56,850 nt of DNA from an uncultured Planctomycetota bacterium (GTDB lineage: Bacteria > Planctomycetota > DG-23 > DATKVD01 > CAZVTD01), in the NCBI GenBank assembly GCA_964629945.1, contig CAZVTD010000001.1, positions 1 through 56,850 on the forward strand, read 5' to 3'. The notes below the pieces were generated by a model. It was not told where the DNA came from. It was given only the letters and a program-made list of their open reading frames with translations, and searched no databases. This document shows positions 14,111-53,797 of the stretch, piece after piece. Numbering within the stretch: position 1 is the stretch's first letter; each line of letters starts with the position of its first letter. A program made the position numbers and the translations under genes.

Positions 14111-14183
14111 TTTCCGATCTCCTCGTTGCATAAGCGGTTGGCTCCTTTAATCCTGCAGTTCACCCGTACCCCGGGGAAGCCTG

Positions 14184-36990: not shown

Positions 36991-37019
36991 TGTCTTCCGG
37001 GGATGAAAGGAAGTGCAAC

Positions 37020-38425: not shown

Positions 38426-38431
38426 CGCCCA

Positions 38432-38678
38432 AAAAAGCAGTTCCCCATGCACGTGGTGACCGCCTGGCTGGGCAACAGCCCCGACATCGCCAAGAAGCAC
38501 TACCTGCAGTTGACCGGAGAACACTTCCAGAGGGCGGGCAGTGGAAGCCAACGAGAAGACCACGACACACGCCACGTTCGTTCCAATCGACCTGGTGAAC
38601 ACCGGGGACAAACTCCCGGCACCACTCCAACGCCTCATTCAGAAAGTTGCCGGCGGCAAATCAGTCCTGGCAAAATGA
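38432..38678 (+). pseudogene. tyrosine-recombinase (phage integrase) 3'-end remnant, copy 1
   Basis: FPMHVVTAWLGNSPDIAKKHYLQLTGEHFQRA is only the last conserved block of an integrase. It begins 7 nt after the OMF stop. The tail motif DKLPAPLQRLIQKVAGG is in a different frame. Confidence 0.6.
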
Positions 38679-38746
38679 TTCTGACAGCAGCCTACCGTGC
38701 CGCATGAGGTAGTCCTTCGCCAACACAAACCTTGCGCAGATCAGCT

Positions 38747-39838
38747 TCACGTGTCATGTCCCTTCGCAGCCGGACCGGCGTCAGGCATAGTCGGCCGGAC
38801 GGCTGTTGGTCGCTTGGCCCGATATCTCTCGGCCAACAGTCCGTGAAGGTGCTCCTTCTTCTCCCCAGGAAGAAAGGCTGCATCAATGCCATTCCTGGCA
38901 AGCTGGAGCATCTCGTCGGCCGTGAAGGCAAAGACTTCCTGGAGCATCACCAGTTCCTCCGTGAGGTTGCTATTGAAGAACAGCGGATCGTCCGATGAGA
39001 CCGTGACCTTGACGCCCGCATCGAAGAGACGGCGGACCGGGTGAGCCTGGATCGAGTCAACCACCCTCAGGCGATAGTTGCTCGTCGGACACATGTCGAG
39101 GGTGATGACGTGCTCGGCGAGGTAGCGCACCAGCTCCAAATCCTCTGCGGCCCTGGTGCCATGGGCAACCCGCGAGACGCCCAGGCAGCGAATGGCTTCC
39201 CAAACGCTCTCAGGGCCGGCGCCCTCGCCGGCATGGGCCCTCAAGCCAAGGCCAGCCTCGCGTGCCGTTTCAAATGCCCCTGTAAATGCCGAGGCGGCAC
39301 TGGCGGTCTCGTGCTCCAACAGATCCACACCGACCACGCCGTACCCCTTGGCGTCTATGGCCTGCCTGACGAAGCCCTGGACGGTATCGGCCAAATCGCT
39401 ACGGAACAGCCCGACGAGGATGCCGAACTCAAGGGCGCCGTCGGGGACGGCCTCGCGCCAGGCCTCGCTTATCGCGTGAGCGATCTCGCCGATCGGGACG
39501 CGGTGCGAGGCGACAGTCACCTCCACATAGATCACATTCTGGGCCCGAAGATCCTCGAATAGCTCACGAGCGATTCGCCTGTAGGTTTCGGCTGATTTCA
39601 TGACGCATGGCGACGCGGTATCGAGGAAATGGCTCAGGTCCTGGAATCGGTAGCGTTTGTCGTGCCAAAGGCTCTGGTCAAGGCGATACGAAGGCTCATC
39701 ATTTCGCCGCAGCTCCACGTACGTGTCCGGGCGTATCGCCCCTTCCAGATGAAGGTGCATCTCGACCTTCGGGATTGTCAACCCATTGATGCTCACGTGC
39801 TCGTCTCCAGCCGACGCCTCTTGCAGGCCCATATCCAC
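38747..39838 (-). CDS. adenosine/adenine deaminase family protein
   Basis: It has the metal and catalytic motifs VEMHLHLEG, HAGE and SSDDP. The start is GTG 39838 or ATG 39832. Confidence 0.85.
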   Translation of the reverse strand: MDMGLQEASAGDEHVSINGLTIPKVEMHLHLEGAIRPDTYVELRRNDEPSYRLDQSLWHDKRYRFQDLSHFLDTASPCVMKSAETYRRIARELFEDLRAQNVIYVEVTVASHRVPIGEIAHAISEAWREAVPDGALEFGILVGLFRSDLADTVQGFVRQAIDAKGYGVVGVDLLEHETASAASAFTGAFETAREAGLGLRAHAGEGAGPESVWEAIRCLGVSRVAHGTRAAEDLELVRYLAEHVITLDMCPTSNYRLRVVDSIQAHPVRRLFDAGVKVTVSSDDPLFFNSNLTEELVMLQEVFAFTADEMLQLARNGIDAAFLPGEKKEHLHGLLAERYRAKRPTAVRPTMPDAGPAAKGHDT

Positions 39839-39961
39839 CCCCGCTGTGTCACACGTCCCCGCTCCCTCTATAAACTCCCGGTGATGTTCGCGCGTATCCC
39901 CGCCCAGCCCAAGCCACCCCTTGCCGGGCAGGCGATTACTTCTGCCCGTCTGTTATGTGGC

Positions 39962-39990
39962 AAGATAAGACTATCTTGAATCCCCGTCAA
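39962..39990 (-). promoter_or_regulatory. candidate sigma-70 promoter, TTGACG-N17-TATCTT
   Basis: The minus strand reads TTGACGgggattcaagatagtctTATCTT. The -10 box is part of an AAGATA-N4-TATCTT inverted repeat. Confidence 0.3.
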
Positions 39991-40113
39991 GGCCAACGTC
40001 GCTCGAGTAGACAATCGAAAGCGAGTGAGCAGACCCCAGGGAATCCGGGTGCACCGCAGGCGGGCACAAACAGTGCCCACCACTCGTGCCACCGTGACCG
40101 CCTGTGTTGACCC

Positions 40114-40413
40114 GTGTCGCGAGATGTTCGCCCAATGGATCAACCGGGCGTAAAGGTTGAGCCGCGGGTTACAGAGCGACTGCTTCTGGGTGGGGTTTGG
40201 GCAAGGAGGCCACGAAGAAGTGTAGCAGAAAGCGCAGCACTTTTTCGCCGAAGTGGTACAAAAAGCGTAACAGCAGGCGACCGCACCGAGCGTTGGCAAT
40301 TAGCAACCGCTCTCACCGACTCTACCTTGGCTGCGGTGATGAACGCTTGGGACAAGCTGCCAGCATCACTTCAACACCTCATTCAGGAAGTCGCCAACAG
40401 CAGCCCTTCATAG
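40114..40413 (+). pseudogene. integrase 3'-tail remnant, copy 2
   Basis: The tail ..VAESAALFRRSGTKS...NAWDKLPASLQHLIQEVANS parallels copy 1 (DKLPAPLQRLIQKVAGG) and copy 3 at the DNA level. No catalytic domain is present. Confidence 0.5.
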
Positions 40414-40516
40414 CCAGCCACGCCAATGCTCGTCACTCAGGGGCGGATCAAGGACTCTTGACTAGCGTCCCAACATAGACAAGGTCTCCTACCGGTGTCC
40501 GCGTTGAGGAAAGCTG

Positions 40517-40549
40517 GCCTCTTCCCGTCTATCTACCGAGGATGTTTTC
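40517..40549 (-). repeat. 33-bp element, 29/33 identical to 22746..22778
   Basis: The plus strand reads gcctcttcccgtctatctaccgaggatgttttc. It spans the last codons (ENILGR), the stop codon and 12 nt downstream of the GltB-like gene. Confidence 0.6.
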
Positions 40550-42112
40550 GACCTCGGCAGCATCGACGTCCATCATGTAGGTGATGCCGCTGATCTCGGC
40601 GGCTTCACGTGTGAGGGCCGCCAGGTCGTCACGCGACAGGAGGTCGAGAGAGAACTTCCGGTTGCCGGCCATGAGCTGCTTGAGTCCGTGTGACAACCGC
40701 TTGTAGTAGGTGTAAAGACCGAGTGCCCCCGTCGGGATCTTCTCGAAGACGGAATCGCCCAGCTCTTTGCGCAGTCCGCTTGCCGTGATGAAGACGTCGT
40801 CGACCGAATCCCCGAAGCGCTCGATATAGACGGGAAGCTGTCGCTGCTCGATGGCCTGTCCGATTGTTTTGCCCACCATGGCTGCCGCGATGGGTGACCT
40901 GGCCATGGCGATCAGTTTCACATAAGGGGACCCCATCGCGAGCCCCTTGTAGATCTGGTCCTCCAGAATGAAGCCTCCGGCCACCGCCAGCGCGGGCAGT
41001 TTCTCGCCTTTTGCCGCCAGCCGCTCAGCATACCGGTGCAGCAGCGAATGGATCTCCACCGGAGGCATGCCCCATTCGTTCATCATGCGCCAGGGACTCA
41101 TCCCCGTGCCACCACCGGCAGCGTCCACGGTCAGCAGGTCCAGCTTGTAACGGGTTGCGAAAACAAGGGCACGCGCCAGGTCGGCAGGACGATAAGCCCC
41201 CGTCTTGAGAAAGATGTACTTCGCCCCCGCCTTGCGCAGTTCATCCACCCGCTGCGCGAACGATTCCTCCGTAATCATCCCGACACGCGAATGCCGCTCG
41301 AACTCCTTGAACGCCCCGCGCTCAAACGCCTGAATCACGGTCTCATCCGTGGGATCGGGCAGCACAATGTAACCCCGCTTGTGCAGCATCTGGGCCTTCT
41401 TGAGGTCGCGGATCTTGACCTCACCCCCGATGTTCTTGGCGCCCTGCCCCCATTTCATCTCCACGCACTCAACGCCGAGTTCCTGGATGGCGTACTCGTG
41501 CACCTTCAGACGCGTGTCTTCCACGTTGGCCTGAACCACAATCGCCCCCCAGCCGTCACGCTGGTGGTCCTGGTACAGCTTGACACGATGCTTGAGGTCC
41601 ACGGTGTCCACCACGCGCCCATCCTTGATGACCGACTGCGGGTCCATGCCGACCACGTTCTCGCCGATGGTGAGTCCGGTGCCCGAGAGCGCGGAGCCGA
41701 TTGCCAGGCCCTCCCAGTTGATCTTGGCGATGTTGGTCGAGCCGATGCCCGCGATGGTCCAGGGATATCTGAACTTGATGCCCTTGTCGTGCCCGAAACG
41801 GACCTCGAGACTGGCCGCCGGAAAGATGGCCTTGTCACTGTCCGCCTCGATGCCGTGCGCCCCCACCGCGGTTCCCATGATGTTGAAGTGGGAGTAGTCC
41901 ACGGGATAGCGCTTGTCGGCAGCGGTCGTGATGACCCCGAACGGCTGGGGATAGATCACCTCGTGGCCCCGATAGGCCGACTTGCCGATTTCGCACATGC
42001 CGATGCAGCCGTCCACACAGGTCACACACATCCCGGAAGCGGGTACAACCGAGCCCTCGGTGCGATTCTTGGTCAGCGTGGCGGCTGAGGCGTTGACGGT
42101 CGAGAATGACAT
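40529..42112 (-). CDS. FMN-binding glutamate-synthase-family protein (stand-alone GltB central-domain homolog)
   Basis: It has an N-terminal Cys cluster (CVTCVDGCIGMCEIGK) and TIM-barrel motifs (VEMKWGQGAKNIGGE, LLTVDAAGGGTGMSP, LAVAGGF). An AGGAG RBS is present. Confidence 0.8.
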   Translation of the reverse strand: MSFSTVNASAATLTKNRTEGSVVPASGMCVTCVDGCIGMCEIGKSAYRGHEVIYPQPFGVITTAADKRYPVDYSHFNIMGTAVGAHGIEADSDKAIFPAASLEVRFGHDKGIKFRYPWTIAGIGSTNIAKINWEGLAIGSALSGTGLTIGENVVGMDPQSVIKDGRVVDTVDLKHRVKLYQDHQRDGWGAIVVQANVEDTRLKVHEYAIQELGVECVEMKWGQGAKNIGGEVKIRDLKKAQMLHKRGYIVLPDPTDETVIQAFERGAFKEFERHSRVGMITEESFAQRVDELRKAGAKYIFLKTGAYRPADLARALVFATRYKLDLLTVDAAGGGTGMSPWRMMNEWGMPPVEIHSLLHRYAERLAAKGEKLPALAVAGGFILEDQIYKGLAMGSPYVKLIAMARSPIAAAMVGKTIGQAIEQRQLPVYIERFGDSVDDVFITASGLRKELGDSVFEKIPTGALGLYTYYKRLSHGLKQLMAGNRKFSLDLLSRDDLAALTREAAEISGITYMMDVDAAEVENILGR

Positions 42113-42121
42113 TGTGCTCTC

Positions 42122-42811
42122 CTATTCTGCTTTGGTAGATCCGGTCGCCCGGTCAGACGGCGGTTCCCCCGTCTTTGAGCGGGATATCTCGGGCCACTCC
42201 GTTTCGGGACTCAACCGACACGCGTCGGCACAGCCTCCGCAGATGGCCTTTTCGGGTTCGTTATAAGTACAGCGAAGCTGACAAGCTGGACAGATATACA
42301 TGCAGGCCCCACAGAATCGGCACACGTCGGAGCGAACGTCGAACGGGGTCCCGATACTTCTGGTTTCACCACGGCCTCGGAAACCGATAGCCTTCGCCGT
42401 CATCTGCTCCTCGCACATGCGCACACACAGGCCGCACAGGATGCAGTCCTCGTGCTCCTGTCGGAATCGCTGCTGGTTCACCCCATGCGCCGAGGCGAGG
42501 TCCTGAATGGTTTTGGACTGCGGACAGGAAGCCAACAGCAGTTCCAGCACCATCTTGCGGGCACGCAGAACGCGGGGCGACGTCGTCCTCACCTTCAGCC
42601 CCTTTTGGACCGGATAGGTGCAGGAAGAAACCAGCTTCGCCCCCGCTCCTTCGCCGATCTCCATTACACAAAGACGACAGGCGCCATACGGCCTCAAGCC
42701 GTCATCGTGACAAAGAGTGGGCACGCTGTAGCCGTAGAATCTTGCCGCCTCCAGCAGCGTCGTCCCTTCTTCTACGCTTACTTTCACCCCGTTCAACGTG
42801 AACTCGATCAT
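42122..42811 (-). CDS. [2Fe-2S]/[4Fe-4S] ferredoxin-like protein (NuoG / HydA N-terminal-type)
   Basis: The N-terminus MIEFTLNGVKVSVEEGTTLLEAA..VPTLCH..GACRLC is of plant-type 2Fe-2S form. It is followed by CILCGLCVRMC and CRFCGACMYICP cluster motifs. Confidence 0.8.
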   Translation of the reverse strand: MIEFTLNGVKVSVEEGTTLLEAARFYGYSVPTLCHDDGLRPYGACRLCVMEIGEGAGAKLVSSCTYPVQKGLKVRTTSPRVLRARKMVLELLLASCPQSKTIQDLASAHGVNQQRFRQEHEDCILCGLCVRMCEEQMTAKAIGFRGRGETRSIGTPFDVRSDVCRFCGACMYICPACQLRCTYNEPEKAICGGCADACRLSPETEWPEISRSKTGEPPSDRATGSTKAE

Positions 42812-42839
42812 TGCCGTCCTTCCCCGGCCAATTCAGTGC

Positions 42840-44690
42840 TCATCTCACCTCCACGGCGTCGAACTTGCAGACCGTCTTACAGGCCCCGCACTTGGTGCAT
42901 CGAGCGGAATCGATCCCGTGCTGTTTCTTCTTCTCTCCACGGATGGCATCAACGGGGCAGACTTTGACACAGCGACGACAGCCCGTGCAATTCTCATTGA
43001 TGGAATAGGTGATCAGTTCCTTGCAAACTCCGGCCGAACAGTGTTTCCTCTCGATGTGCTGGAGATATTCGTTTCGGAAATATCGCAGCGTGGAAAGCAC
43101 CGGGTTTGGGGAGGTCTGACCCAGGCCGCACATGGCCGTGTCCTTGACCACCGGAGCCAACTCCTCCAGGAGACCCAGGTGCTCGACGGTTCCCTTGCCG
43201 CTCGAAATATCATCAAGGATTTCAAACATGCGCTGCGTGCCCTTTCGGCAGGTGAAGCATTTGCCGCAGGACTCATCCTTGAGGAAATGGGTGAAGTACT
43301 TGGCAATGTCGACCATGCACGTCCGCTCGTCCATGACGATCATGCCGCCCGAGCCCATGATGCTGCCGGCTTTCGACAGGCTCTCGTAGTCAATCGTCAT
43401 GTCAAAACGGTCCGCGGGAATGCGGCCCCCTGAAGGTCCTCCCGTCTGAACCGCCTTGATGGGCACCCCGTCGGACGGACCACCTCCGATGTCATGGACG
43501 ATCTTGTCGATGGTGATCCCCATGGGGACTTCCACCAGCCCGGTGTATTTGATCTTCCCGACCAGGCTGAAGATCTTCGTCCCGGGGCTGTCCTTGGTCC
43601 CAACCCGTCTGAACTCCTGAGCGCCGCGAGTGATGATGACGGGGATGTAGGCCCAGGTCTCGCGGTTATTGATGAGCGTGGGCTTGCCCTGAATGCCTTT
43701 CTCCACCGGGAAAGGCGGCCGCTGACGCGGCTCCCCGCTCCTCCCCTCCACCGAATGGATAAGAGCGGTCTCTTCCCCGCAGACAAATGCACCGGCGCCC
43801 CTCACCAACTGGAGGTCGAAGGAGAATCCCGTTCCCAGAATGTCCGCTCCGAGGAGTCCCAGTTCACGGGCTTGGCGCAGGGCAACGTTCAAATTTCTTA
43901 CCGCCAGGGGATACTCGTCGCGAACATAGAGGACACCCTCGGCAGCCCCCGTGGCGTAGGCGCCGATGAGCATGCCTTCGATGATGCCGTGCGGATTGCC
44001 CTCCAGAAGGCTTCGGTCCATATACGCGCCAGGGTCGCCTTCGTCGCCGTTGCATACCAGGTACTTTGGACCTGATTTCTTCTGCCCGGCCAGCATCTCC
44101 CATTTCGTCCCAGTGGGAAAGCCGGCTCCGCCGCGACCGCGCAGACCTGACGCCTTTACCTCTGCCAGCACCTTCTGGGGCTCGTCCTGGTCCAGGACCT
44201 TGGCGATTCCCGAATACCCCCCCTGTTCGATGTACGTGTGAATCCGGATGGGATCCACCCTCTCGTTGCAGCTCATCAGCGTGCGCACCTGGTCTCTGAA
44301 AAAGGGCAGTTCGGACTGCTTTCTCCCCCTGGACCCCGTCACCGGATCAACGTAAAGCAGGTCCTCAACGACGTCGCCCGCTGCCGCCGCAATGACGATA
44401 CGCTCCACATCCTTGACGTTGACCTTCGGGTAGAAAATGCCTTCCGGCTCCACCAGGATGGAGGGCTCCATCTGACAGAACCCGTGACACCCGGTCACCC
44501 GAAGCGAAACCCGTTTCGTGAGCTTGTGTCGAAGGAGTTCCTTCTTCGCGGCACGGATGAGAGCGTTGGCGCCGCTGGCCTGTCCACACGTGCCGGCTGG
44601 AATCACGAGGGTGGATGTCCGTCCGGCATGCCCTTCGACGAGACGCAACCTCAGAGCATCCAGATCCTCAATGCTGGTCAGCCTGCCCAT
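42840..44690 (-). CDS. NuoF/HydB/HndC-like NAD(P)H-binding flavoprotein with extra Fe-S domains
   Basis: It has GRGGAGFPTGTKWE (FMN/NADH site) and ESCGKCFTCRKGT (N3 cluster). There is an N-terminal thioredoxin-like 2Fe-2S domain (TGCHGFCQMEP) and a C-terminal 2x[4Fe-4S] domain (CTGCRRCVKVCP, CTKCGACKTVC). Confidence 0.85.
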   Translation of the reverse strand: MGRLTSIEDLDALRLRLVEGHAGRTSTLVIPAGTCGQASGANALIRAAKKELLRHKLTKRVSLRVTGCHGFCQMEPSILVEPEGIFYPKVNVKDVERIVIAAAAGDVVEDLLYVDPVTGSRGRKQSELPFFRDQVRTLMSCNERVDPIRIHTYIEQGGYSGIAKVLDQDEPQKVLAEVKASGLRGRGGAGFPTGTKWEMLAGQKKSGPKYLVCNGDEGDPGAYMDRSLLEGNPHGIIEGMLIGAYATGAAEGVLYVRDEYPLAVRNLNVALRQARELGLLGADILGTGFSFDLQLVRGAGAFVCGEETALIHSVEGRSGEPRQRPPFPVEKGIQGKPTLINNRETWAYIPVIITRGAQEFRRVGTKDSPGTKIFSLVGKIKYTGLVEVPMGITIDKIVHDIGGGPSDGVPIKAVQTGGPSGGRIPADRFDMTIDYESLSKAGSIMGSGGMIVMDERTCMVDIAKYFTHFLKDESCGKCFTCRKGTQRMFEILDDISSGKGTVEHLGLLEELAPVVKDTAMCGLGQTSPNPVLSTLRYFRNEYLQHIERKHCSAGVCKELITYSINENCTGCRRCVKVCPVDAIRGEKKKQHGIDSARCTKCGACKTVCKFDAVEVR

Positions 44691-44705
44691 GTGGCAAATC
44701 CTGTT

Positions 44706-45602
44706 CTAAGCCCTGGCGGCTTTCGTCCGTGAAAGCTCTCGGCCGGAAAGCAGGTCCGCGGAGTCCCGACCGATGTCAAGCATATGTCCGTTGCACCCGT
44801 AACGAGCGCAGAGACGAAGTGCACAGTCCTCGCCCATCCACAACACGGCCGTGGAAGAACCGCATTCCGGACAGGACCCGTCCCGAAGCACGCTGTGCCG
44901 GCAATGCGGACAACTCAGATCCAGAACCGTCCCCTCCGGAACCGTGAGACTCGATTCCCGACGAGGATCCCCATACCGCGCGCAACACCAGAGATCTGCA
45001 CGACCTCCGTCAAGGGAAGTCTCCAGGTGAATCGAAGGATGCCCGCCGATAGGCCGCTTCGGGTCCATGAGAGATACCCCGCACGAGGGGCACGTCACGT
45101 CGACCTCGAAAGTCACCCCGGTCGGGTCCACGTCCGACCTGTCCCGTCCATTGCGGAATTTATCAACAATCTCCGTCACCTTCGCGCCGTCCACCTGGGA
45201 GAAGCAGTGCTGGTCCACCATGACGATCGGACCCAGAGCGCACGCTCCCAGACAATTCACCGTCTCCAGTGTGAACTGCCCGTCCGCCGTGGTTTCGCCG
45301 GGCTGAATGCCCAGAACGCGTGCGAGCCCGTCCCGGACGCCCCCGGCACCCCGAACGTGACAAGCCGTGCCCAGGCAGACACGCACCAGGTGCTTGCCCC
45401 GAGGCTTCAGGCTGAACGCCTTGAAGAATGTCGCCACGGCATAGACGTCCACCAGAGACCGACCGGTTCCTTCGGCAACCTTCTCCAACACCTCACGCGG
45501 AAGATATCCGTATGCCGACTGGACTTCCTGAAGAATGCCGATGAGGCCGCCGTGATCGTTCCGGTGCTTGCTCAGTATCTCATCGATCGTTTGCGGAATC
45601 AT
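44706..45602 (-). CDS. NuoE/HndA-like [2Fe-2S] protein with a ~145-aa Cys-rich C-terminal extension
   Basis: The NuoE core is VRVCLGTACHVRG..VNCLGACALGP. I trimmed the start to the ATG at 45602 (GGAG upstream). The tail contains CPSC, CPHC, CPEC and two CARYG motifs. Confidence 0.8.
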   Translation of the reverse strand: MIPQTIDEILSKHRNDHGGLIGILQEVQSAYGYLPREVLEKVAEGTGRSLVDVYAVATFFKAFSLKPRGKHLVRVCLGTACHVRGAGGVRDGLARVLGIQPGETTADGQFTLETVNCLGACALGPIVMVDQHCFSQVDGAKVTEIVDKFRNGRDRSDVDPTGVTFEVDVTCPSCGVSLMDPKRPIGGHPSIHLETSLDGGRADLWCCARYGDPRRESSLTVPEGTVLDLSCPHCRHSVLRDGSCPECGSSTAVLWMGEDCALRLCARYGCNGHMLDIGRDSADLLSGRELSRTKAARA

Positions 45603-45656
45603 ACCCGACTCCAGGCTTCTGACGCTTTCAGACGAGGGCGGACCGCACCACACCGA

Positions 45657-45947
45657 CTACTGGTACTCCTCGCAATGCCACACGCCGCTCTCCGGTTTGA
45701 GGAAGGTACAGCTGTCGAAGTTGGTGCAGTTCGCGCACAGACCTTTGATGTTGGACGCAAGACCGGGAACGGGATTCCCCCGAGCCCGGGTCTTGGGACG
45801 TGCCTGACGACCTGCTGCAACCGCCGCCATCACACACTCATATTCCTCACACTGAAGGACCGGTTGTTTAGAACCTTTCGGGTACGTGCAGGCGGCAGCG
45901 TGCCTGCAGTTCAAACATAGCCCGCGATATCCAGTGCTTTCTTCCAC
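45657..45947 (-). CDS. small Cys-rich protein with two GLCxNCx5C...CEEY repeats (function unknown)
   Basis: The repeats are GLCLNCRHAAACTYPKGSKQPVLQCEEYE and GLCANCTNFDSCTFLKPESGVWHCEEYQ. I re-set the start to GTG 45947, with GGAGG 7 nt upstream. The ATG at 46082 lies upstream of the predicted sigma-54 promoter. Confidence 0.6.
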   Translation of the reverse strand: MEESTGYRGLCLNCRHAAACTYPKGSKQPVLQCEEYECVMAAVAAGRQARPKTRARGNPVPGLASNIKGLCANCTNFDSCTFLKPESGVWHCEEYQ

Positions 45948-46026
45948 AGGTTCGCCTCCGATAGATCGCAATGCTTCGGTTCTTATGCGGGGCTTGTCGA
46001 AGCCCGCCGCTGTCGCACGTACAGTA

Positions 46027-46042
46027 AGCAAATGGCGTTCCG
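46027..46042 (-). promoter_or_regulatory. candidate sigma-54 promoter cGGAACgccatTTGCT
   Basis: The minus strand reads CGGAACGCCATTTGCT, with correct GG-N10-GC spacing and a TTGCT -12 box. It lies downstream of the bEBP gene and about 80 nt upstream of GTG 45947. Confidence 0.5.
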
Positions 46043-46212
46043 AAACCCGGATCTCGGTCCTCTGAAAGAGAGAAGTGAACAACCCGGAAGGGAAAAGGAT
46101 TCCGCAAGGTCATTTCTAACAAGGAGTTACAGCGAGGGTCACGTCTTCAGTCTCTGCAGGGAATCGCCGGACCAAACAGGAAGGACATACAGCCGGACCG
46201 GGGAATAACGCC

Positions 46213-46237
46213 CCGGTGGGGAAATCGACCCCACCGG
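46213..46237 (-). terminator. 9-bp GC-rich hairpin just after the bEBP stop (weak intrinsic terminator or bEBP site)
   Basis: CCGGTGGGG-aaatcga-CCCCACCGG begins 5 nt after the stop at 46243. The downstream T-tract is poor (GTTATT). Confidence 0.35.
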
Positions 46238-46242
46238 TGGGC

Positions 46243-47592
46243 TCATTCCGAAGAGACCTCTTCTCCAAGCCATTTCCGGAGCGTCTTCCGATCGATGCCG
46301 AGGATGCGGGCTGCCTGGGTCTTGTTGCCGCCGACGCTGGCCAGCACGTTGCGCACGTGTTCCGTCTGCACCTCGACCAGTGTGCGGTCAAGACCCGTTC
46401 GACGCAGTGCCGAGAAGCGCATCAGGGACGGAAGATCGGGAACATCCACGATATCCCCTTCACTCATCAGGACCAGACGATGCATGACGTTCTGCAGTTC
46501 CCTGACGTTCCCCGGCCAGGGGTAGCTCCTCAGGACCTGCAGGGCCTTGTCCGAAAACTTTGGCACCGGCCTGCCCAATTCCCGAGCGAACTGCGCCGCG
46601 AAGTGACGGGTCAGAAGAAGAATGTCATCACCCCTGTCACGCAGGGCCGGGAGAGTGATTGCAATGACGTTCAACCGGTAGAAGAGATCTTCCCGGAAAA
46701 GGTCTTTCTTCACCAGCTCCACCAGATCTCGATTGGTCGCGGCCAGGATTCTGACGTCCACTTTTCTCGCCCGAGTCGTTCCGACCATGCAGACTTCCTT
46801 GTCTTCCAGCACCCGCAGTAGTTTGGCCTGCATGGCCGCACTCGTGTCTCCCACCTCGTCGAAAAAGAGCGTCCCTCCGTCTGCCGTCTGAAAGAAGCCG
46901 GCTCGGGATTCCGTGGCCCCCGTGAACGCACCTTTCACGTGTCCGAACAGTTCGCTCTCCAGGAGCGACTCCGGAATTCCCGCACAGTTCACCGGAACAA
47001 ACGGGGCCGAGGCGCGCAAGCTGTTGTAGTGAATGGCGCGTGCGACGACCTCTTTGCCCGTTCCGCTCTCTCCCGACAACAGCACCGTGACATCGGTCTG
47101 GGCCGCCTTGGAAATCGCGCGCAGCGTCTCACGCATGATCTTCGATTCGCAGACGAGACCATAGCGGTTCTCCGCGGCCAGGTCCGTGCTCGGACGACCA
47201 GCCCGCCTCATGTGCAGCTTCTCCAGTGCTCTTCGTACCCCGGCAAGAAGCTCCTCGTCGGTGAACGGTTTCCGCAGATACTCCTCGGCCCCGGCCTTGA
47301 CCGCATCCACGGCCCCCTCCACCGTGGCATAGCCGGTGATCATCATGACCTCGGTGTCTCTGCAGTTCTCACGGACGTGCCTGACCAGCTCAAGCCCGCT
47401 GACTCTCGGCATCTTCAGGTCCGTGATGACCAGGTCCACCGGCGTCTTCTCCAGGATCCCGATGGCCTCGGCGACGCTGGGAGCAGTGAACACCCGATAG
47501 CCCACGGACTCCAAATTCCTTTGCAGCACCTCCACGGTATCCGGGGCATCATCCACCACCAGAACGGATTCTCTGCTTGCCGCAGCGTTCAT
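46243..47592 (-). CDS. sigma-54-dependent response regulator (NtrC family bEBP)
   Basis: It has a receiver domain (LVITDLKMPRVSG), GESGTGKE, GAFTGA and a Fis-type HTH (NKTQAARILGIDRKTL). The ATG at 47592 lies 1 nt after the kinase stop. Confidence 0.9.
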   Translation of the reverse strand: MNAAASRESVLVVDDAPDTVEVLQRNLESVGYRVFTAPSVAEAIGILEKTPVDLVITDLKMPRVSGLELVRHVRENCRDTEVMMITGYATVEGAVDAVKAGAEEYLRKPFTDEELLAGVRRALEKLHMRRAGRPSTDLAAENRYGLVCESKIMRETLRAISKAAQTDVTVLLSGESGTGKEVVARAIHYNSLRASAPFVPVNCAGIPESLLESELFGHVKGAFTGATESRAGFFQTADGGTLFFDEVGDTSAAMQAKLLRVLEDKEVCMVGTTRARKVDVRILAATNRDLVELVKKDLFREDLFYRLNVIAITLPALRDRGDDILLLTRHFAAQFARELGRPVPKFSDKALQVLRSYPWPGNVRELQNVMHRLVLMSEGDIVDVPDLPSLMRFSALRRTGLDRTLVEVQTEHVRNVLASVGGNKTQAARILGIDRKTLRKWLGEEVSSE

Positions 47593-47593
47593 C

Positions 47594-49168
47594 TCAGCCC
47601 GTCTCCTCTCCGGCTGGCCCGCCGTCCACGGGCAGCCTGATCTCAAACCGCGTGCCTCGTCCAACCTCGCTCTCCACGTGGATCAGCCCGCCGTGCGACG
47701 TGACGATGCCGTGCACCACCGGAAGTCCAAGACCGGTCCCCTCGCCGATGTCCTTCGTGGTAAAGAAGGGCACGAAGATCTGTTTCACAGTCTCCGGACT
47801 CATCCCGACGCCCGTGTCTTCGATCACGAGGAAAACGTCTTCTCCCGACGTCCGCGTCTCCACCTTCAGCTTGCCACCCTCGGGCATGGCCTGGATGGCG
47901 TTGACCACCAGGTTCACCAGCACCTGCGTCAGCAGCGCCGCGTCGCCTACCATGTCAGGCAACCCCGGCAACAAGGAACGCTGGACCTCAATTCCCGCTT
48001 TGACACAGCGCGCTTCCAGGAAGTAGAGTCCTTCTTCAATGACCGTGTTCAGGTTGATCGACGTCTTTTTCGATGGCACCTGGCGTGCGAAGACGAGCAG
48101 TTTGCTGATGATCTCCCGGGCGTGGACCGCTGCCCGTTCGATTTTGCCGAGGTCATGACCGGCCTGCTCCGGCAAGCCGGAACTCTTCTTGGCCAGTTGA
48201 GCGAAGCCGAGGATATTGCCGAGCGGCTCGTTCAACTCGTGTGCGACGCCCGCTGCCAGCTGCCCGATGGTCGCCAGCCGGTCGGCGTGCATGAGCTGCT
48301 CCTGCAACTGCGACCTCTCCACTTGGGTCTGACGCCTCTCAACGATGAACCCTACCTGTCGAGCCACCGCGTCGATGAGATGCCGTTCTTCTCTCAGAAA
48401 CGGACCTTCGTCACGCTCCGGCTTTGCCTCGGGATAGGCAACCTCCACGGAACCCCTTGACTGCCCTTTGACCAGGATGCCGGCTCGCTGCGTCTGCTCA
48501 CTTCCCAACCAGCTTCCGGTCGAATACTCCTGCCCGTCCAGCAGAATCCGTGCTATTGCGTCGGGATACTGCCAGGCCGGGGGAAGCAGTGCGACGATGC
48601 GCCGCATCATGTCTTCCAGAGAAATTCCGGGCGTTTCCGTGACCTGCGCTATCCCGTAGAGACACGTCAGCTCCTTGACGCGTTCCCGGAGCGCAGCGTG
48701 CGAGCGTTGACCGACTAATGCCGTCGCCAGCGCCTGGGCAACGTCCTCATAGCAGCCCCGCTCGGTCTTTGTCGGTCCCCCGCTTCTTCGCCAGGTCAGG
48801 AACAGGGTCCCAATTCTCATCTGTCCCACCGCCAGAGGAAGGATGACCCGTAGTCTCCCTGATTCCTCAGAAGCTCCGGAGGGAACCGGCGAGATGCTCT
48901 CTTCGACTGGCTTTTTGAACTTCGTGACTTCAAGACAAGGCGGGCCTTCACCGTTCCCTCTCGAACGGTATTGAGTGATGTGGTTCCCGTCCATGACCTG
49001 GAGCTCGACCTCTTCGCACCCCGAGAAGCCCATGAGTATGCCCGCAACCTCAGAGGCATATTCCGCTTCAGGCAGTCCGGAAAGCGCCTGTTCCAGGATG
49101 CGGCGCGACAACACCCGGAACTCTTCCTGCGAATGACCCGTCTGGACACACTTCACGGCATCCCTCAC
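47594..49168 (-). CDS. cytoplasmic GAF-domain sensor histidine kinase
   Basis: No TM segment is seen. GAF-like N-terminal modules are followed by an H-box (VAHELNEPLGNILGF) and HATPase motifs (NLVVNAIQA, GTGLGLPVV). The start is GTG 49168. Confidence 0.85.
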   Translation of the reverse strand: MRDAVKCVQTGHSQEEFRVLSRRILEQALSGLPEAEYASEVAGILMGFSGCEEVELQVMDGNHITQYRSRGNGEGPPCLEVTKFKKPVEESISPVPSGASEESGRLRVILPLAVGQMRIGTLFLTWRRSGGPTKTERGCYEDVAQALATALVGQRSHAALRERVKELTCLYGIAQVTETPGISLEDMMRRIVALLPPAWQYPDAIARILLDGQEYSTGSWLGSEQTQRAGILVKGQSRGSVEVAYPEAKPERDEGPFLREERHLIDAVARQVGFIVERRQTQVERSQLQEQLMHADRLATIGQLAAGVAHELNEPLGNILGFAQLAKKSSGLPEQAGHDLGKIERAAVHAREIISKLLVFARQVPSKKTSINLNTVIEEGLYFLEARCVKAGIEVQRSLLPGLPDMVGDAALLTQVLVNLVVNAIQAMPEGGKLKVETRTSGEDVFLVIEDTGVGMSPETVKQIFVPFFTTKDIGEGTGLGLPVVHGIVTSHGGLIHVESEVGRGTRFEIRLPVDGGPAGEETG

Positions 49169-49182
49169 AAAAGCAGGAGCAA

Positions 49183-49434
49183 ATGGCGGATGAACACGAT
49201 GATGCAGACATGCTACCGACGACTCCGGCGGTTGGCAACTCAGAATCCAGGGCCCCCCAGAGTGCGTTCAATGCGCTGCATATGTCATCGTTCGTCGAGC
49301 CAGGAGCAGCAAAGCCGAGAACAGACGTAGCAAAAAGTGCAGCATTTTCTCGCCAAAACGTCGCAAAAAACGCAAAAATACACAGCCAAACCGAGCGTTT
49401 TGGAGTGGAACCGAGTACAAGAGAAAAGGCGTAA
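49183..49434 (+). pseudogene. integrase 3'-tail remnant, copy 3
   Basis: It contains ..AVGNSESRAPQ.. (a decayed WLGNS block) and KSAAFSRQNVAKNAK.. The stretch from 49327 is about 75% identical by eye to 40222-40300 of copy 2. Confidence 0.45.
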
Positions 49435-49453
49435 CCCCAAACGGGGTTACGCC
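49428..49453. terminator. perfect 11-bp stem / 4-nt loop hairpin (terminator-like)
   Basis: The sequence is GGCGTAACCCC-aaac-GGGGTTACGCC. An A-tract lies on the left, giving TTTTCTC after the stem on the minus strand. TTAT lies on the right. Confidence 0.5.
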
Positions 49454-49514
49454 TTATGCCACTCCAGAACTTCAAAGGCGTTCAATGCGAAAACGCCTCT
49501 ACATATAAAAGTAC

Positions 49515-49600
49515 CCCCACGGGGAATCGAACAATCGCGTTTTCGGGCCCAAAAACGCCGATTTTCGAGGATGGCGTAGCAGAAAGCGGTACACTTTCTC
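49515..49600 (+). repeat. direct repeat A (~86 bp) upstream of fic; decayed integrase-tail/att-like sequence
   Basis: The sequence is cccccacggggaatcgaacaatcgcgttttcgggcccaaaaacgccgattttcgagg..gcgtagcagaaagcggtacactttctc. It is about 80% identical by eye to 51457-51543. Confidence 0.6.
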
Positions 49601-49774
49601 CCTATCCCCTTGCAGCAACATGTGTTAGCGTTCTTGCCACCCGTTATCCGACGTCCTTCCGTAACGCATTCCACAACAAATGCCGCATCTATAACGAAAT
49701 CCACTGCGAAGTAACGGTTTTCCCTCCACATGGCAGCCATCGAGGCCGATAAATCGCGCATATAACACTTTCTC

Positions 49775-49802
49775 TTGACAACAGGCCCCCTGTAACGATA
49801 AT
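49775..49802 (+). promoter_or_regulatory. sigma-70 promoter TTGACA-N16-GATAAT for fic
   Basis: TTGACA lies at 49775-49780 and GATAAT at 49797-49802. GTAACG motifs sit at 49661, 49711, 49792 and 49812 around it. Confidence 0.6.
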
Positions 49803-49837
49803 TCTCCGGGCGTAACGGTTCTTTCAGGAGAAACGCC

Positions 49838-51373
49838 GTGTCTAACAATTCTAAGCCCAGTGGACCCACTGGCAGACCCGCAGGCTATGCCGCCCTTATA
49901 CGGCGATATGATCTGCGGGTCATTCCCAACTGGCATGAGTCTGTGGTCGGTTCGTCCGGCTCCCGACAAACCCACCAGGATGGCCTGCGCATCCGTGAGC
50001 TCTTTCCAGCATCCTATTGGCCTGGGGATGGTCTTGGTGACCAGTTGGAATTCGCGCTGAAATACGATGGCATCAACCTGTCAATTCTAGCCCTGCTCTT
50101 CCAGAAGATCAACCTACAGGAACTGACTGACTACATCCGCTCGAAGCCAACCGGATGGAACGCCAGGAGGATCTGGTATCTCTATGAGTTCCTGACAAGG
50201 AAACGCCTGGAGCTCGATGACCTGATCCAGGGCAACTACGTCGACCTTCTCGATGTAAAGTCATACTACACCGCGAAACCGCGAAGGGTGCGCCGTCAGC
50301 GCATTAACGACAACCTTCTTCAGGGACCGGACTTCTGTCCTGTCGTTCGCCGCACGGCACGATTGGAAGAGTTCGTCAAATCCGATCTTCGGGCGAAGTG
50401 CCTTGACCTGGTCGAGTCCTATCCAGAGGACGTTCTCAATCGGGCCCTGAGTTACCTCTATACCAAGGAGACCAGGTCCTCCTATGAAATCGAGCACGTG
50501 CCCACTGACACATCAAGGACCGAGCGCTTCGTGACTCTGCTGCGTCAAGCAGAGAAGGATGACTTCCTTGGCAGAGAATCCCTGGTTGCCCTTCAGAACC
50601 AGATCGTCGACGAGCGTTTCAGGGACCGGGATTACCGGAAGAGTCAGAACTATGTTGGAGAAGCTGTGCAGTGGCAGAGAGAGCGAGTGCACTTCGTCTC
50701 CCCTAAGCCGGAAGACTTGGCAAGCCTGATGGAAGGGCTGCTCGCAATTCACGAACGGATGGTCGAGAGCGATGTCGATCCCGTCATTCACGCTGCCATT
50801 GTGGCCTTCGGGTTTGTGTTCATTCACCCGTTCGAGGACGGGAACGGGCGAATCCACCGGTTCCTCATCCACAACATCCTGTCCAGAAGGGGATTCACTC
50901 CGAAAGGGGTCATGTTCCCCGTGTCGGCGGCGATGCTGAACGGCCGGGCGGCCTATGATGCGGCGCTGGAAGCGTTTTCCAGACCGCTGTTGCGTCTGGT
51001 GGACTACACGCTCGATGATGTTGGCCAGATGACCGTCCACGGCGAGACAGCGGAATACTATCGCTACATCGACCTGACGACCCAGGCCGAGGCGTTGTTC
51101 GACTTCATAGCCAGAACCATTGAGACGGACCTTGTCAACGAACTGGAGTTCCTGCGGAGCTACGATGGTGCGAAGAAGGCCATCCCTGAGATCGTGGACC
51201 TGCCGGATAGGCTTCTCGACCTGTTCATCAGGTTCTGTCTGCAAAACAAAGGGGAGCTGTCAGCTGGAAAGCGAGCCAGGTTCTTCGCCAGCCTGACCGA
51301 TGCCGAAATTCAGAAGATGGAGCGTGCACTTCAGGAGGCCTTCCACCTCACAACTCCGGATGCACTTGGATAG
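49838..51373 (+). CDS. Fic family protein (AMPylase/adenylyltransferase fold)
   Basis: The core motif is HPFEDGNGRIHRF. The start is GTG 49838, with AGGAGA 7 nt upstream. Confidence 0.9.
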   Translation: MSNNSKPSGPTGRPAGYAALIRRYDLRVIPNWHESVVGSSGSRQTHQDGLRIRELFPASYWPGDGLGDQLEFALKYDGINLSILALLFQKINLQELTDYIRSKPTGWNARRIWYLYEFLTRKRLELDDLIQGNYVDLLDVKSYYTAKPRRVRRQRINDNLLQGPDFCPVVRRTARLEEFVKSDLRAKCLDLVESYPEDVLNRALSYLYTKETRSSYEIEHVPTDTSRTERFVTLLRQAEKDDFLGRESLVALQNQIVDERFRDRDYRKSQNYVGEAVQWQRERVHFVSPKPEDLASLMEGLLAIHERMVESDVDPVIHAAIVAFGFVFIHPFEDGNGRIHRFLIHNILSRRGFTPKGVMFPVSAAMLNGRAAYDAALEAFSRPLLRLVDYTLDDVGQMTVHGETAEYYRYIDLTTQAEALFDFIARTIETDLVNELEFLRSYDGAKKAIPEIVDLPDRLLDLFIRFCLQNKGELSAGKRARFFASLTDAEIQKMERALQEAFHLTTPDALG

Positions 51374-51456
51374 TCACTGGATCGGGGCAGAACGTAACTT
51401 GGTACGACTCCATGCGAGTCGGTGCCACGCAGTTCCCCTTGGTGCAACTCTCTCAC

Positions 51457-51543
51457 AGCCACGAGGGACCGAACGATCGCCTTTTCGGGCCCAAGAACGC
51501 CGATTTCGGAGACCAGCGTAGCAGGAAACGTATCACTTTCTTC
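51457..51543 (+). repeat. direct repeat B (~87 bp) downstream of fic
   Basis: The sequence is cagccacgagggaccgaacgatcgccttttcgggcccaagaacgccgatttcggag..gcgtagcaggaaacgtatcactttctt. It is the partner of repeat A. Confidence 0.6.
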
Positions 51544-51612
51544 TGCCCACGATTCAGCCACCGTTATGGCCGTTTGCCTCAATCTCCACGCAGTTCTCCG
51601 ATGCGCAATGCT

Positions 51613-51660
51613 GGAGGTCGCAGGTTCAAAGCGGAGGCAGGATTCGAACCTGCGACCTCC
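51613..51660. repeat. 15-bp perfect inverted repeat GGAGGTCGCAGGTTC / GAACCTGCGACCTCC with an 18-nt spacer
   Basis: The arms lie at 51613-51627 and 51646-51660. The right arm is part of the tRNA fragment, and the left arm is an inverted copy of its variable/T-stem region. Confidence 0.7.
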
Positions 51661-51670
51661 GGGTTATGAG
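51630..51670 (-). other. tRNA-Met/Ile2(CAU)-like 3' half (att-site-type fragment, not a functional tRNA)
   Basis: The minus strand reads CTCATAA-CCCGG-AGGTC-GCAGG-TTCGAAT-CCTGC-CTCCGCT. These are the anticodon loop, 3' anticodon stem, variable loop, complete T-arm and 3' acceptor strand. No matching 5' half lies upstream. Confidence 0.65.
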
Positions 51671-52123: not shown

Positions 52124-52136
52124 TGACGGGGCCGAT

Positions 52137-52613: not shown

Positions 52614-52622
52614 GTCGTATGA

Positions 52623-53795: not shown

Positions 53796-53797
53796 AT

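Follow-up and report, generated by a model that had tools for sequence, protein, structure and literature searches.

We analysed a window of 56,850 nucleotides from a metagenome-assembled genome (MAG; 87% complete, 497 contigs) of an uncultured Planctomycetota bacterium. Downstream of an OMF gene, the window carries on its minus strand an adenosine deaminase gene (38747–39838; PF00962, E=2e-71) and a redox operon (40529–49168; GltS-like, Fe-S, NuoF-like and NuoE-like products by Pfam), which is accompanied by a sigma-54 response regulator and a histidine kinase. These are followed by a plus-strand Fic-domain gene of 511 aa (49838–51373; PF02661), whose product matches the PADLOC candidate defence family PDC-S24 over its full length (E=4e-187) and also SoFic. 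A minus-strand four-gene cassette (51707–55219; Pfam, PADLOC MTase_II) encodes a 138-aa protein, a DUF523/2-thiouracil desulfurase, an SPL-like radical SAM protein and a fusion of ParB-N with an N6/N4 DNA methylase. At ∼56.1 kb, a truncated radical-SAM ORF (55395–56114, plus strand) meets a 3'-truncated GH29 fucosidase gene on the minus strand (PF01120), and this junction is the probable right edge of a foreign block. The region also contains repeats that are real, far beyond chance, and fall into three different kinds of thing. The deaminase gene lies between the repeats named copies 1 and 2, the redox operon between copies 2 and 3, and fic is the sole gene between units A and B.

Copy 1 (38435–38678, plus strand) is the 5'-truncated 3' end of a tyrosine integrase gene of the short-tail type. 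Its catalytic Tyr block (38435–38554) encodes KQFPMHVVTAWLGNSPDIAKKHYLQLTGEHFQRA and, after one frameshift, an AW..LP-type tail (38592–38675) reads LVNTGDKLPAPLQRLIQKVAGG.. up to a stop codon ending at 38678. The first-pass annotation had taken this copy for a C-terminal recombinase block, which was borne out: it matched the profile of the family's C-terminal catalytic block (E=1e-17), was 93% identical over 100 nt to C50:14097-14196 (blastn), and matched P0001 and int50 in two frames (tblastn). The C50 gene encodes the only intact integrase of the clade in the MAG (416 aa, short-tail type) and is accompanied by an ImmA/XRE regulatory pair. Copy 1 indeed lies directly 3' of the OMF stop codon, with a gap of ∼10 nt in place of the claimed 7 nt. 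The tail said to be common to copies 1 and 2 was recovered (66 nt at 77%, or 59 nt at 80%, E=6e-8), and the peptides common to the two are real by alignment.

Copy 2 (40100–40413, start approximate, plus strand) is a decayed, stop-ridden integrase 3' end with four parts. The first, an X block (∼40100–40221) whose origin is uncertain, gave no significant match to the family's catalytic block; it is followed by two arm motifs (40222–40245 and 40255–40275), a linker, and tail codons (40318–40413) that read LAAVMNAWDKLPASLQHLIQEVANSSPS before a stop and can be aligned with the family tails. It matched C62:9394-9655 (71% identical over 284 nt, E=3e-37) and C62:4278-4456 (74% over 182 nt, E=2e-21). 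Copy 3 (49319–49454, plus strand) is what is left of the tail of a tRNA-Glu-type integrase, decayed and stop-ridden; an arm motif lies at 49327–49350 and a hairpin with a 12-bp stem at 49427–49454. It reads ..QKVQHFLAK..RRNPKRGYALCHS.. with stop codons inside, matched the tails of P0042, P0004, P0009 and P0097 (tblastn), and is ∼76% identical to C62:4236-4357 (blastn, E=8e-19). Both copy 3 and the remnant C62-3 can be aligned to the family tails, with stops in frame, for as much as 99 aa, and the alignment of C62-3 continues through the tRNA (TPTGTRTPVPRLRT). The homology of copy 3 is confined to 49319–49454, and the part of the interval first assigned to it that lies at 49183–49318 is unrelated; the DKLP tail it was thought to keep is not there, and only the arm-motif and pre-core part remains. 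The pieces do come from one integrase family and lie in one orientation at module borders, as had been proposed, and no catalytic integrase is left in the window (no PF00589 match on C1).

A non-coding block of ∼200 nt is common to copy 2, copy 3 and two remnants on C62, the latter adjoining an intact tRNA-Glu(CUC) gene. Copies of this block are 69–76% identical to each other, compared to only 36–54% to working integrases. As the block was already non-coding in the shared remnants, copying of a dead remnant is favoured over independent insertions, and copy 2, copy 3 and the two C62 remnants are best read as copies of one dead tail rather than as independent decays.

Repeats A and B are real as well (83 nt at 80%; profile E=1e-27 and 1e-24). 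They had been described as decayed gene copies; instead, they are P'-type att units, in which a tRNA-Glu 3' end lies beside a conserved arm of ∼60 nt. Unit A begins GTACCCCCACGGGGAATCGAAC, and 21 of 22 nt match, in reverse complement, the tRNA-Glu(CTC) 3' end at C62:4091-4164. This att core (49511–49532, minus strand; tRNA-Glu(CUC), one mismatch) spans acceptor strand, T stem and T loop without a tRNA body, and its breakpoint, between TCGAAC and AATCG, is that of the intact attP in L019 and L006. Beside the core lies a core-proximal P arm (49455–49510, plus strand), and over the 53 nt from 49473 to 49525, which extend into the core, the identity to the C62 stretch adjoining tRNA-Glu is 100%. 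The P' arm of A (49533–49599, plus strand) holds an imperfect palindrome (49534–49562) and the arm motif GTAGCAGAAAGCGGTACACTTTCT (49576–49599), past which the homology to the other units stops sharply. A spacing of 43 nt separates the core, which ends at 49532, from the motif, which starts at 49576; this spacing is 42 nt in L008 and ∼45 nt, read by eye, in L006. Unit B (51459–51541, plus strand) consists of a degenerate tRNA-Glu core (51459–51474) and a P' arm with palindrome (51476–51504) and motif (51518–51541). No AW..LP codons follow A or B.

Together with two full copies on C55, A and B form a four-copy family of core+P' units (nhmmer, E 1e-24 to 1e-27), with sharp ends in all four and different genes after each. 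No P arm or integrase tail was found to the left of B, and no P arm or integrase trace to the left of either C55 unit, which simple accretion with random decay does not predict. No core+P' unit was found to the left of copy 3, so that deaminase and redox 'elements' have no demonstrable left ends. Beyond unit B, half of a tRNA-Met(CAU)-like gene stands alone (51613–51670, minus strand; the 3' half, anticodon loop to acceptor end, read from the sequence). It is joined to an inverted duplicate of its T-arm region and weakly matched the tRNA-Met on C91 (blastn); an element of another class probably left it as an att scar. ARAGORN found no tRNA gene in the window.

The GTAGCA core pointed out in the first-pass annotation stands: GTAGCARRAARYG occurs four times in the window, always on the plus strand, against 0.02 expected. 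Both arms carry the motif, in two different reading frames. In L006, both contain GGTGCAGAATCCGGTGCA, which reads VQNPVQ in one arm and GAESGA in the second; in L008, AATCCGACGTA is on both and reads TQNPTY and DVESDV. It is kept as DNA and not as protein, and we infer that this motif of ∼20 nt, GTAGCAGAAAGCG, is a putative arm-type site that the integrase may bind.

It is difficult to reconcile these results with a source other than mobile elements. A regulatory or REP-like repeat of the host, a family of small RNAs or an assembly artefact is very improbable and appears largely refuted already by the homology comparisons, given the protein-level homology to integrase tails and the near-identity to a tRNA 3' end. 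Copy 2 does form an open frame of 99 codons, the units hold a dyad and a small hairpin, and the MAG is fragmented. However, the frame is not kept in C62-2, Rfam gave no matches, and the copies are confined to three contigs, one of them adjoining tRNA-Glu. The repeats are only 70–86% alike, too divergent for mis-joins, and an independent Logan contig reproduces 49504–51665 exactly.

In intact relatives, the integrase reading frame passes through attP. Their integrases overlap tRNA-Glu(CTC) in five loci (L005, L008, L025, L026 and L027), and peptides from the tRNA T-arm stand at the end of 107 of the 120 best homologues (loose regular expression); the closest intact members of the clade insert at the tRNA-Glu(CUC) 3' end. 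L008 has its attL core 5.4 kb upstream of the integrase gene, followed by the motif and then by DLAHLIANWPSLPNHIKRQILDFL with a stop codon. Joining the attR and attL sides at the core gives one open frame with this same end. The long-form ORFs P0097, P0052, P0080 and P0048 run through the tRNA-like core peptide to an AW..LP tail at the end, and these tails align with those of int50, P0001, copy 1, copy 2 and C62-2. Among integrated relatives, L008 is the only one in which an AW..LP tail was found at the element's far end; L025–L027 showed no attL within 10 kb. As the cargo is upstream of the integrase in intact relatives, the cargo of each remnant would precede it and not follow it as originally annotated.

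We therefore consider the region to be a composite scar of integrative elements from one Planctomycetota tyrosine-integrase clade, with a probability of roughly 0.7. In this clade, the integrase frame passes attP without stopping before it. Upstream of the core lies the tail past ..KHYLQ.T.EHF.RA with one or two motifs of ∼20 nt, then comes the 22-nt tRNA core; downstream, on the P' side, there is another motif copy and, in many relatives, the codons of the conserved C-terminal AW..LP helix. In the proposed mechanism, integration would split this arrangement. The tRNA-side end would keep the catalytic gene, its tail now reading into the tRNA, and the far end would receive the core and the P' motif, together with the AW..LP codons in members that have them. 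Because the ORF would be split at the core, every insertion would leave integrase-3'-like DNA at both ends in one orientation. Copies 1, 2 and 3 would then be three truncated or decayed integrase 3' ends, and A and B a pair of att units of the core+P' kind. A complete attP-like junction would be formed by copy 3 with the P arm, the core and the P' arm of A, as would be expected when a second element inserts into the attR of a first. A later deletion would have taken away all catalytic parts, leaving the window unable to move anything by itself. The number and the order of the insertions are likewise deduced.

The single hotspot of the first-pass annotation can be named as the tRNA-Glu(CUC) 3' end, the target of the closest intact relatives and of the C62 array; the tRNA gene, however, is absent from the window, and on the right the island stops at a truncated fucosidase gene, so that the window is not demonstrably the hotspot itself. 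The missing tRNA-Glu gene and this right end weigh against the composite-scar reading, as do the host-like composition of the redox operon, the one non-coding block that copy 2 has in common with C62-2 and C62-3, and the far-end AW..LP codons, missing after A and B and confined to one integrated relative.

In an unlikely alternative, the insertions were not stacked: copy 3, P arm, core and the P' arm of A would be the never-recombined attP of a single composite element, now dead. The whole 49–56 kb block would have come or rearranged as one piece, and copies 1 and 2 would be older scars with no relation to it. This is consistent with L006, L019 and L020, which are intact with the integrase in a P-core-P' state, no tRNA and genes on both sides, with the uniformly low GC from 49 to 56 kb, and with the lack of tRNA-Glu and a right border that is a deletion scar. 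On the other hand, unit B and the tRNA-Met half-site inside the block argue for more than one acquisition, and the pairing of a type 2 remnant, cargo and a type 3 remnant with P arm recurs at the C62 tRNA-Glu with different cargo.

Composition separates the two halves of the region. GC is lower in the fic/methyltransferase half, as claimed, though the contrast is smaller than had been stated (0.54–0.57 from 49 kb to the window end against 0.59–0.64 elsewhere). The right half (49.2–56.1 kb) is compositionally foreign, at the 91st–96th percentile of tetranucleotide distance, and the four-gene cassette has low GC and an atypical tetranucleotide composition. Repeated integration and decay is supported for this low-GC half with Fic and the ParB-methylase cassette. 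The deaminase gene and the redox operon are not low in GC; the former is mildly atypical (75th–84th percentile) and the latter (40.5–48 kb) host-typical (17th–55th percentile). The best relative of the GltS-like protein, at 79% identity, is from another class, against 48–56% within the same order or class. The proposal that the deaminase and redox genes are stacked cargo was not borne out by this native-like composition, and their arrival as cargo is putative. No close relative genome able to show the empty site was found.

Cargo on C62, C55 and the window is mostly of the defence type (Hachiman, STAND NTPase, TIR protein and Fic/PDC-S24): Hachiman and a STAND NTPase in the C62 modules, and TIR+AAA, an ion channel and TCAD9/HD/GNAT proteins in those of C55. 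This cargo brings in a further reading, unlikely as the principal explanation and compatible with the composite scar, that of a CIME- or integron-like cassette array served in trans. The 83-nt units would be working recombination sites, each heading a small integrase-free module, mostly a single defence system, and an integrase elsewhere (the C50 gene or an incoming element) would capture, excise or shuffle the modules. The four units are 77–86% alike with sharp boundaries and unrelated cargo directly after each, three of the four lack an integrase or P-arm trace on the left, and the modules are short and defence-rich, the one between A and B consisting of Fic/PDC-S24 only. C50 offers an intact family integrase with its ImmA/XRE pair; the 53 nt of P arm and core identical between the window and C62, next to sequence at ∼76%, fit functional constraint or recent exchange; and CIME accretion is a described process (PMC5704250; PMC3146451). 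Yet the core of B is degenerate, the units show no significant fold (single-strand z-scores −0.04 to −2.3), the cargo genes, unlike integron cassettes, occupy both strands and have promoters of their own, and the C50 integrase is of the short-tail type. Searches of 185,579 species genomes and JGI metagenomes did not find the core+P' unit.

On the composite-scar reading, the locus is a genomic-island scar of a known kind, formed by tandem accretion with CIMEs, with a family-level twist. In Dehalococcoides, ssrA-specific islands stand in tandem at a small-RNA gene, bounded by direct repeats of its 3' end; some lack integration genes and are proposed to be cis-mobilizable, and in one case the repeat is reported to be embedded in the integrase gene (McMurdie et al. 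2011, PMC3146451). Here too, several islands are stacked at one small-RNA gene, bounded by T-loop-region repeats with extra conserved bases beside them, and some are without integration genes. The Dehalococcoides islands use the serine recombinase DsiB and a tmRNA target, whereas a tyrosine recombinase and tRNA-Glu are involved here; in addition, the arm here has a motif common to the integrase tail, and the target gene is missing from the window. Accretion of ICEs and IMEs, as outlined from Pavlovic 2004 and Bellanger 2011 in one review, proceeds by site-specific insertion, decay to an integrase-free att-flanked element (CIME) and new insertion in an att site (PMC5704250). This three-step scheme, as there outlined, applies here, and the Fic module, with A and B on its two sides, qualifies as a CIME, its mobility as such being putative; no conjugation or mobilisation genes were seen in our region, and three of the four units are without the P-side half att site. 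The Asn tDNAs of Klebsiella pneumoniae are described as a landing site used repeatedly by different islands (PMC4891358), much as tRNA-Glu would be here; those arrays keep intact integrases and stand beside the tRNA gene, whereas the window has neither. Repeated short arm-type sites on both arms, away from the core and in direct orientation, are a feature of the lambda attP. The putative sites of this clade are arranged in the same way; unlike in lambda, those on the P arm lie inside coding sequence, and the frames in which the two arms are read differ. Although ordinary in kind, the scar shows that the integrase gene of this group runs through its own insertion site. SSV-type 'suicidal' integrases likewise have the recombination site in their own reading frame, a trait exclusive to archaea according to a review (PMC8371274), and in both cases the integrase gene is split on integration, so that its 3' part ends up at the opposite end of the inserted element. 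In the SSV type the split destroys the enzyme, whereas here only the non-catalytic AW..LP tail is severed and replaced by tRNA-encoded residues, and the catalytic Tyr remains on the integrase side.

A PF00589 search of the whole contig C1, which is the window, gave no match, and a complete catalytic domain (R-H-R-(H/W) plus the Tyr nucleophile) is not present. Copy 1 (38435-38678) retains only the last ∼37 integrase residues, including the ..KHY.. block. It encodes ..FPMHVVTAWLGNSPDIAKKHYLQLTGEHFQRA (E=1e-17 with the profile of the family C-terminal block), and it is 93% identical over 100 nt to the intact 416-aa integrase of contig C50 from the same MAG. Past one frameshift it reads LVNTGDKLPAPLQRLIQKVAGG.. 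up to a stop codon, and this is the same C-terminus as that of the C50 protein (..IMNAWDKLPASLQRLIHEVAAGSPAK, stop). Copy 2 (about 40100-40413) ends in LAAVMNAWDKLPASLQHLIQEVANSSPS and a stop codon; it is 71% identical over 284 nt to another contig of the MAG, C62:9394-9655 (E=3e-37). The homology of copy 3 (49319-49454) matches C62:4236-4357 (E=8e-19). The family profile and tblastn against integrases found no catalytic residues in copies 2 and 3. For copies 1 and 2, the tails can be aligned to those of the C50 integrase and of the homologous integrase P0001, and copy 3 and its C62 counterpart align with family tails. The first-pass annotation had described decayed repeats of an integrase 3' end and no remaining catalytic integrase. 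That the repeats are real, and that the window has no catalytic integrase left, was borne out by the missing PF00589 match, by the homology of copies 1-3, by the 80% identity between the repeats A and B over 83 nt, and by the GTAGCARRAARYG core, which occurs four times, always on the + strand, against 0.02 expected. For copy 3, the proposed tail is homologous from 49319 only, and the earlier part of its span had to be dropped.

A gene map of 35-57 kb was built on Pfam matches. It opens with a MacB-type permease, followed by the OMF gene of this efflux operon. This gene falls into two parts in different reading frames (36783-37736 and 37742-38425), each with a PF02321 match. It lies directly upstream of the truncated copy 1, and its split reflects either a frameshift that made it a pseudogene or an error of assembly. 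An adenosine deaminase gene (- strand) lies between copies 1 and 2. Between copies 2 and 3 is a GltS-like/Fe-S/NuoF-like/NuoE-like redox operon with a sigma-54 response regulator and a histidine kinase, all on the - strand. Copy 3 is followed by unit A, fic (+), unit B, a tRNA-Met half-site and a four-gene cassette on the - strand (ParB-methylase, SPL-like radical SAM, DUF523 and an unknown protein). At the right end, a truncated radical-SAM ORF (+, 55395-56120) stops abruptly at the start of a 3'-truncated GH29 fucosidase gene (-); this tail-to-tail deletion scar is probably the right edge of the low-GC block. The tRNA-Met(CAU)-like half-site, just downstream of the methylase cassette (51613-51670, - strand), comprises the 3' half from anticodon loop to acceptor end. 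This half is joined directly to 15 nt of its own variable-loop and T-arm region in inverted orientation, and probably represents an att scar left by another class of integrase.

Units A (about 49511-49599) and B (51459-51541) have two relatives on contig C55, and a profile made from the four units returned exactly these four (E=1e-24 to 1e-27). After the copy 3 counterpart on C62 come a hairpin, a ∼55-nt spacer and, on the opposite strand, an intact tRNA-Glu(CTC) gene. The spacer is also present in the window, where it runs into GTACCCCCACGGGGAATCGAAC, which is 21 of the 22 nt of the tRNA-Glu(CTC) 3' end (the core). In unit A the tRNA sequence ends after the core, and a conserved stretch of 60 nt with an imperfect palindrome and the GTAGCA motif follows. 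The mutual homology of the four units stops after this motif, and the core of unit B is a degenerate copy of the tRNA-Glu 3' end. A direct repeat of the target tRNA 3' end, the mark of a tRNA-targeting element, is thus found at the borders. As both A and B carry the tRNA core with the conserved 60-nt arm, they are att units composed of a core and a downstream (P') arm, and not the decayed gene copies for which they had been taken. Copy 3, the spacer, the core and the arm of unit A together make up a complete P-core-P' site. ARAGORN found no intact target tRNA in the window; the intact tRNA-Glu gene with the same P arm is on C62.

To the left of three of the four core+P' units, there is no integrase-like sequence. 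Examined as RNA or single-stranded DNA structures, the units had no Rfam or tRNA matches and three of the four folded no better than shuffled sequences, unit A being the exception (z=-2.3). Exact-pattern scans for the att unit and the P arm elsewhere gave two chance matches in genome contigs and none in metagenome contigs, and no variant contigs were found. Copy 2 was also considered as a tRNA-Glu-type attL and rejected, as its motif alone matches the unit profile (E=0.11) and it has no core.

Copy 2 and the two C62 remnants (C62-2, the counterpart of copy 2, hereafter type-2, and C62-3, the counterpart of copy 3, type-3) have a common block of ∼200 nt. In this block they are 69–76% identical to one another and 36–54% identical to working genes, and they derive from a single tail that was already dead. 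About 100 nt of the block (X) have no significant likeness to any integrase. Tested as a decayed catalytic block, X gave a profile E of about 1-3, and tblastn against all ten integrases of the genome returned nothing; hallmark positions (P..W.N..LQ..F) partly line up by eye, at the 36–54% nucleotide identity to working genes that is near noise. The order of type-2 remnant, cargo, type-3 remnant, P arm and core is the same in the window and at the C62 tRNA-Glu locus, the cargo being the redox operon and two-component system in the former and a STAND NTPase in the latter. Moreover, 53 nt of P arm and core (window 49473-49525; C62 about 4172-4224) are 100% identical, and the adjoining integrase-tail remnants are only ∼76% identical. 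At 76% identity, the chance of such a stretch is about 5e-7. This means that the stretch is under strong functional constraint or has recently undergone conversion or recombination.

The contents of these two contigs are as follows. C62 carries, at 4091-12438, tRNA-Glu(CTC), the P arm, the type-3 remnant, a gene for a 1555-aa STAND/NACHT NTPase (PDC-M54A-like) and the type-2 remnant; beyond the latter are an assembly gap and a Hachiman HamA/HamB pair. In the C55 region (897-13000), the units at 7162-7251 and 12909-12996 bracket GNAT, TCAD9/4TM-effector, HD and FGase genes, and genes for a pentapeptide-repeat ion channel, a 1416-aa AAA protein and a TIR protein come after them.

We compared these remnants with the family of the C50 integrase, for which 1,973 of the 8,000 candidates scored were significant homologues; the named relatives are labelled Planctomycetes or Phycisphaerales. 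After ..HYLQ.T.EHF.(K/R)A, the homologue tails have xQNxxQ or KSAAESAAL-type repeats and an ..ALCGS.. stretch, and most of the 120 best ones end in a reverse-complement reading of a tRNA T arm, such as PPRGLEPLSPG or TPTGTRTPVSRMRT. Such T-arm-derived ends were present, by a loose pattern, in 107 of the 120 best homologues, and overlap of the integrase gene with tRNA-Glu(CTC) was confirmed at five fetched loci. Longer forms (P0097, P0052, P0080 and P0048) traverse the core peptide and end in ..DP.LA.V..AW..LP......I.., and these ends align with the tails of the C50 integrase and of copies 1 and 2. The decisive locus is L008, on a 2.4-Mb contig. Its integrase reads into tRNA-Glu, and 5.4 kb upstream there is another core, after which come the motif and the codons DLAHLIANWPSLPNHIKRQILDFL.. 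up to a stop. With the two ends joined at the core, the frame is continuous, so that integration severs a conserved C-terminal tail and leaves it at the element's far end. The ORFs of L006 and L019 span P-core-P'. At L025-L027, a search of the 10 kb upstream found neither an attL nor an AW..LP tail, and L008 is the sole integrated case found. The core lies ∼75–80 codons downstream of the ..HY.. Tyr block, and the integrated form retains the whole catalytic domain. An attP inside the integrase reading frame is found in relatives, and the window holds only its decayed equivalent.

The C50 locus (11324-14344) has the MAG's only intact integrase of this clade, a short-tail form whose ORF contains no tRNA core. 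Upstream of this integrase lies a pair of an ImmA/IrrE peptidase and an XRE repressor. A second integrase (C38, 13611-14561; 502 aa), of another clade, has the C-terminus ..GGRGGSRTHT.. that reads into tRNA-Leu; the overlap of integrase ORF and tRNA in this MAG is therefore not confined to the tRNA-Glu clade.

The two arms around the core also carry a repeated motif. In L006, the 18-mer GGTGCAGAATCCGGTGCA flanks the core to either side and encodes VQNPVQ in one arm and GAESGA in the other. The two arms of L008 have the 11-mer AATCCGACGTA in common (TQNPTY versus DVESDV). In the window family, where the motif is written GTAGCAGAAAGCG..CAC, the P-arm motif of C62-3, GTAGCAGAAAGCGTAGCACTTTCT, and the P'-arm motif of unit A, GTAGCAGAAAGCGGTACACTTTCT, have two differences. 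The motif is conserved as DNA in L006, L008 and the window family. A motif kept in both arms whatever the frame may be an arm-type binding site of the integrase.

In the intact relatives, cargo lies upstream of xis and int. The cargo of each remnant would accordingly be at its left and would not follow it, as the first-pass annotation had proposed. Foreignness was measured as the percentile of tetranucleotide distance. The 48-56 kb region is atypical (91st–96th percentile, GC 0.55–0.57), the deaminase area (37.5-42 kb) is intermediate (75th–84th) and the redox operon (40.5-48 kb) is typical (17th–55th). The GltS-like subunit of this operon (40529-42112) is 79% identical to a protein of a genome from a different class (G019:C92), compared to 48–56% for genomes of its own order or class, and the NuoE/NuoF/Fe-S/GltS gene order is partly shared with that other genome. 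These similarities suggest a possible lateral transfer of the operon. Fic is alone between units A and B, which are spaced 1942 nt start to start, and it matches the PADLOC defence candidate PDC-S24 over its full length (E=4e-187). The cargoes of C62 (Hachiman HamA/HamB, STAND NTPase) and C55 (TIR, 1416-aa AAA, ion channel, TCAD9, HD and GNAT proteins) are also of defence type. The sole other contig with the fic gene, a Logan contig from run SRR8165484, is an identical 2162-nt piece of the window.

The MAG has 3.2 Mb in 497 contigs (estimated 87% complete), and no relative at the genus or family level was found among 199,900 species genomes. No empty site was found in relatives, and the DNA of copy 2 had no other match among these species. 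The common dead tail, the repeated pair of remnants, the units with no integrase to their left and the 53-nt identity do not fit simple insertion and decay. With these observations, two other readings are possible: that the units are still usable sites serviced in trans, as in the CIME model, or that 49-56 kb arrived as a single composite.

We put at only about one in five the probability of a broader reading, in which the tRNA-Glu integrases swap their tails and the orphan core+P' units are landing pads of a trans-serviced array of single defence modules that have no integrases. As attP lies within the reading frame, the enzyme would have different tails in the two states, ending in the AW..LP helix in the free element and in tRNA-derived residues in the integrated one. 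If true, the integrating and the resident enzyme would have a built-in difference.

The results mark 49-56 kb, C55 and C62 as belonging to a tRNA-Glu-linked system of defence-gene islands. For the deaminase and the redox operon, import should not be assumed until more evidence is at hand. Integrase C-termini that stand alone in Planctomycetota genomes are not necessarily pseudogenes of independent events, because the design of this clade puts integrase 3' DNA at both ends of every insertion. The signature of tRNA core, arm motif and AW..LP tail could be used by annotators to find island borders. Tail exchange at the level of the family is the part worth pursuing.

Among known systems, the integron is not matched: the window has no integrase, its cargo is on both strands, and three of the four units are not folded beyond shuffled sequences. 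The nearest described cases are the tandem ssrA islands of Dehalococcoides and the accretion of ICEs and CIMEs (PMC3146451, PMC5704250). The ssrA islands have direct repeats of the T-loop region with extra conserved flanking bases; some of their modules have no integrases, and one repeat lies inside a recombinase gene (PMC3146451). The Fic module likewise is an integrase-less segment with att sites in direct orientation on both sides, as in a CIME. A 2021 review calls the att-inside-ORF trait of SSV-type integrases exclusive to archaea (PMC8371274). The design of the relatives in this Planctomycetota clade recalls that trait, but here the non-catalytic tail alone is cut off and the catalytic parts are not separated. 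If the tail exchange is functional, bacteria would have a non-suicidal equivalent of the SSV design of archaea, and an att site within an integrase gene would not be restricted to archaea. The window itself adds a further case to a kind of scar that is already known.
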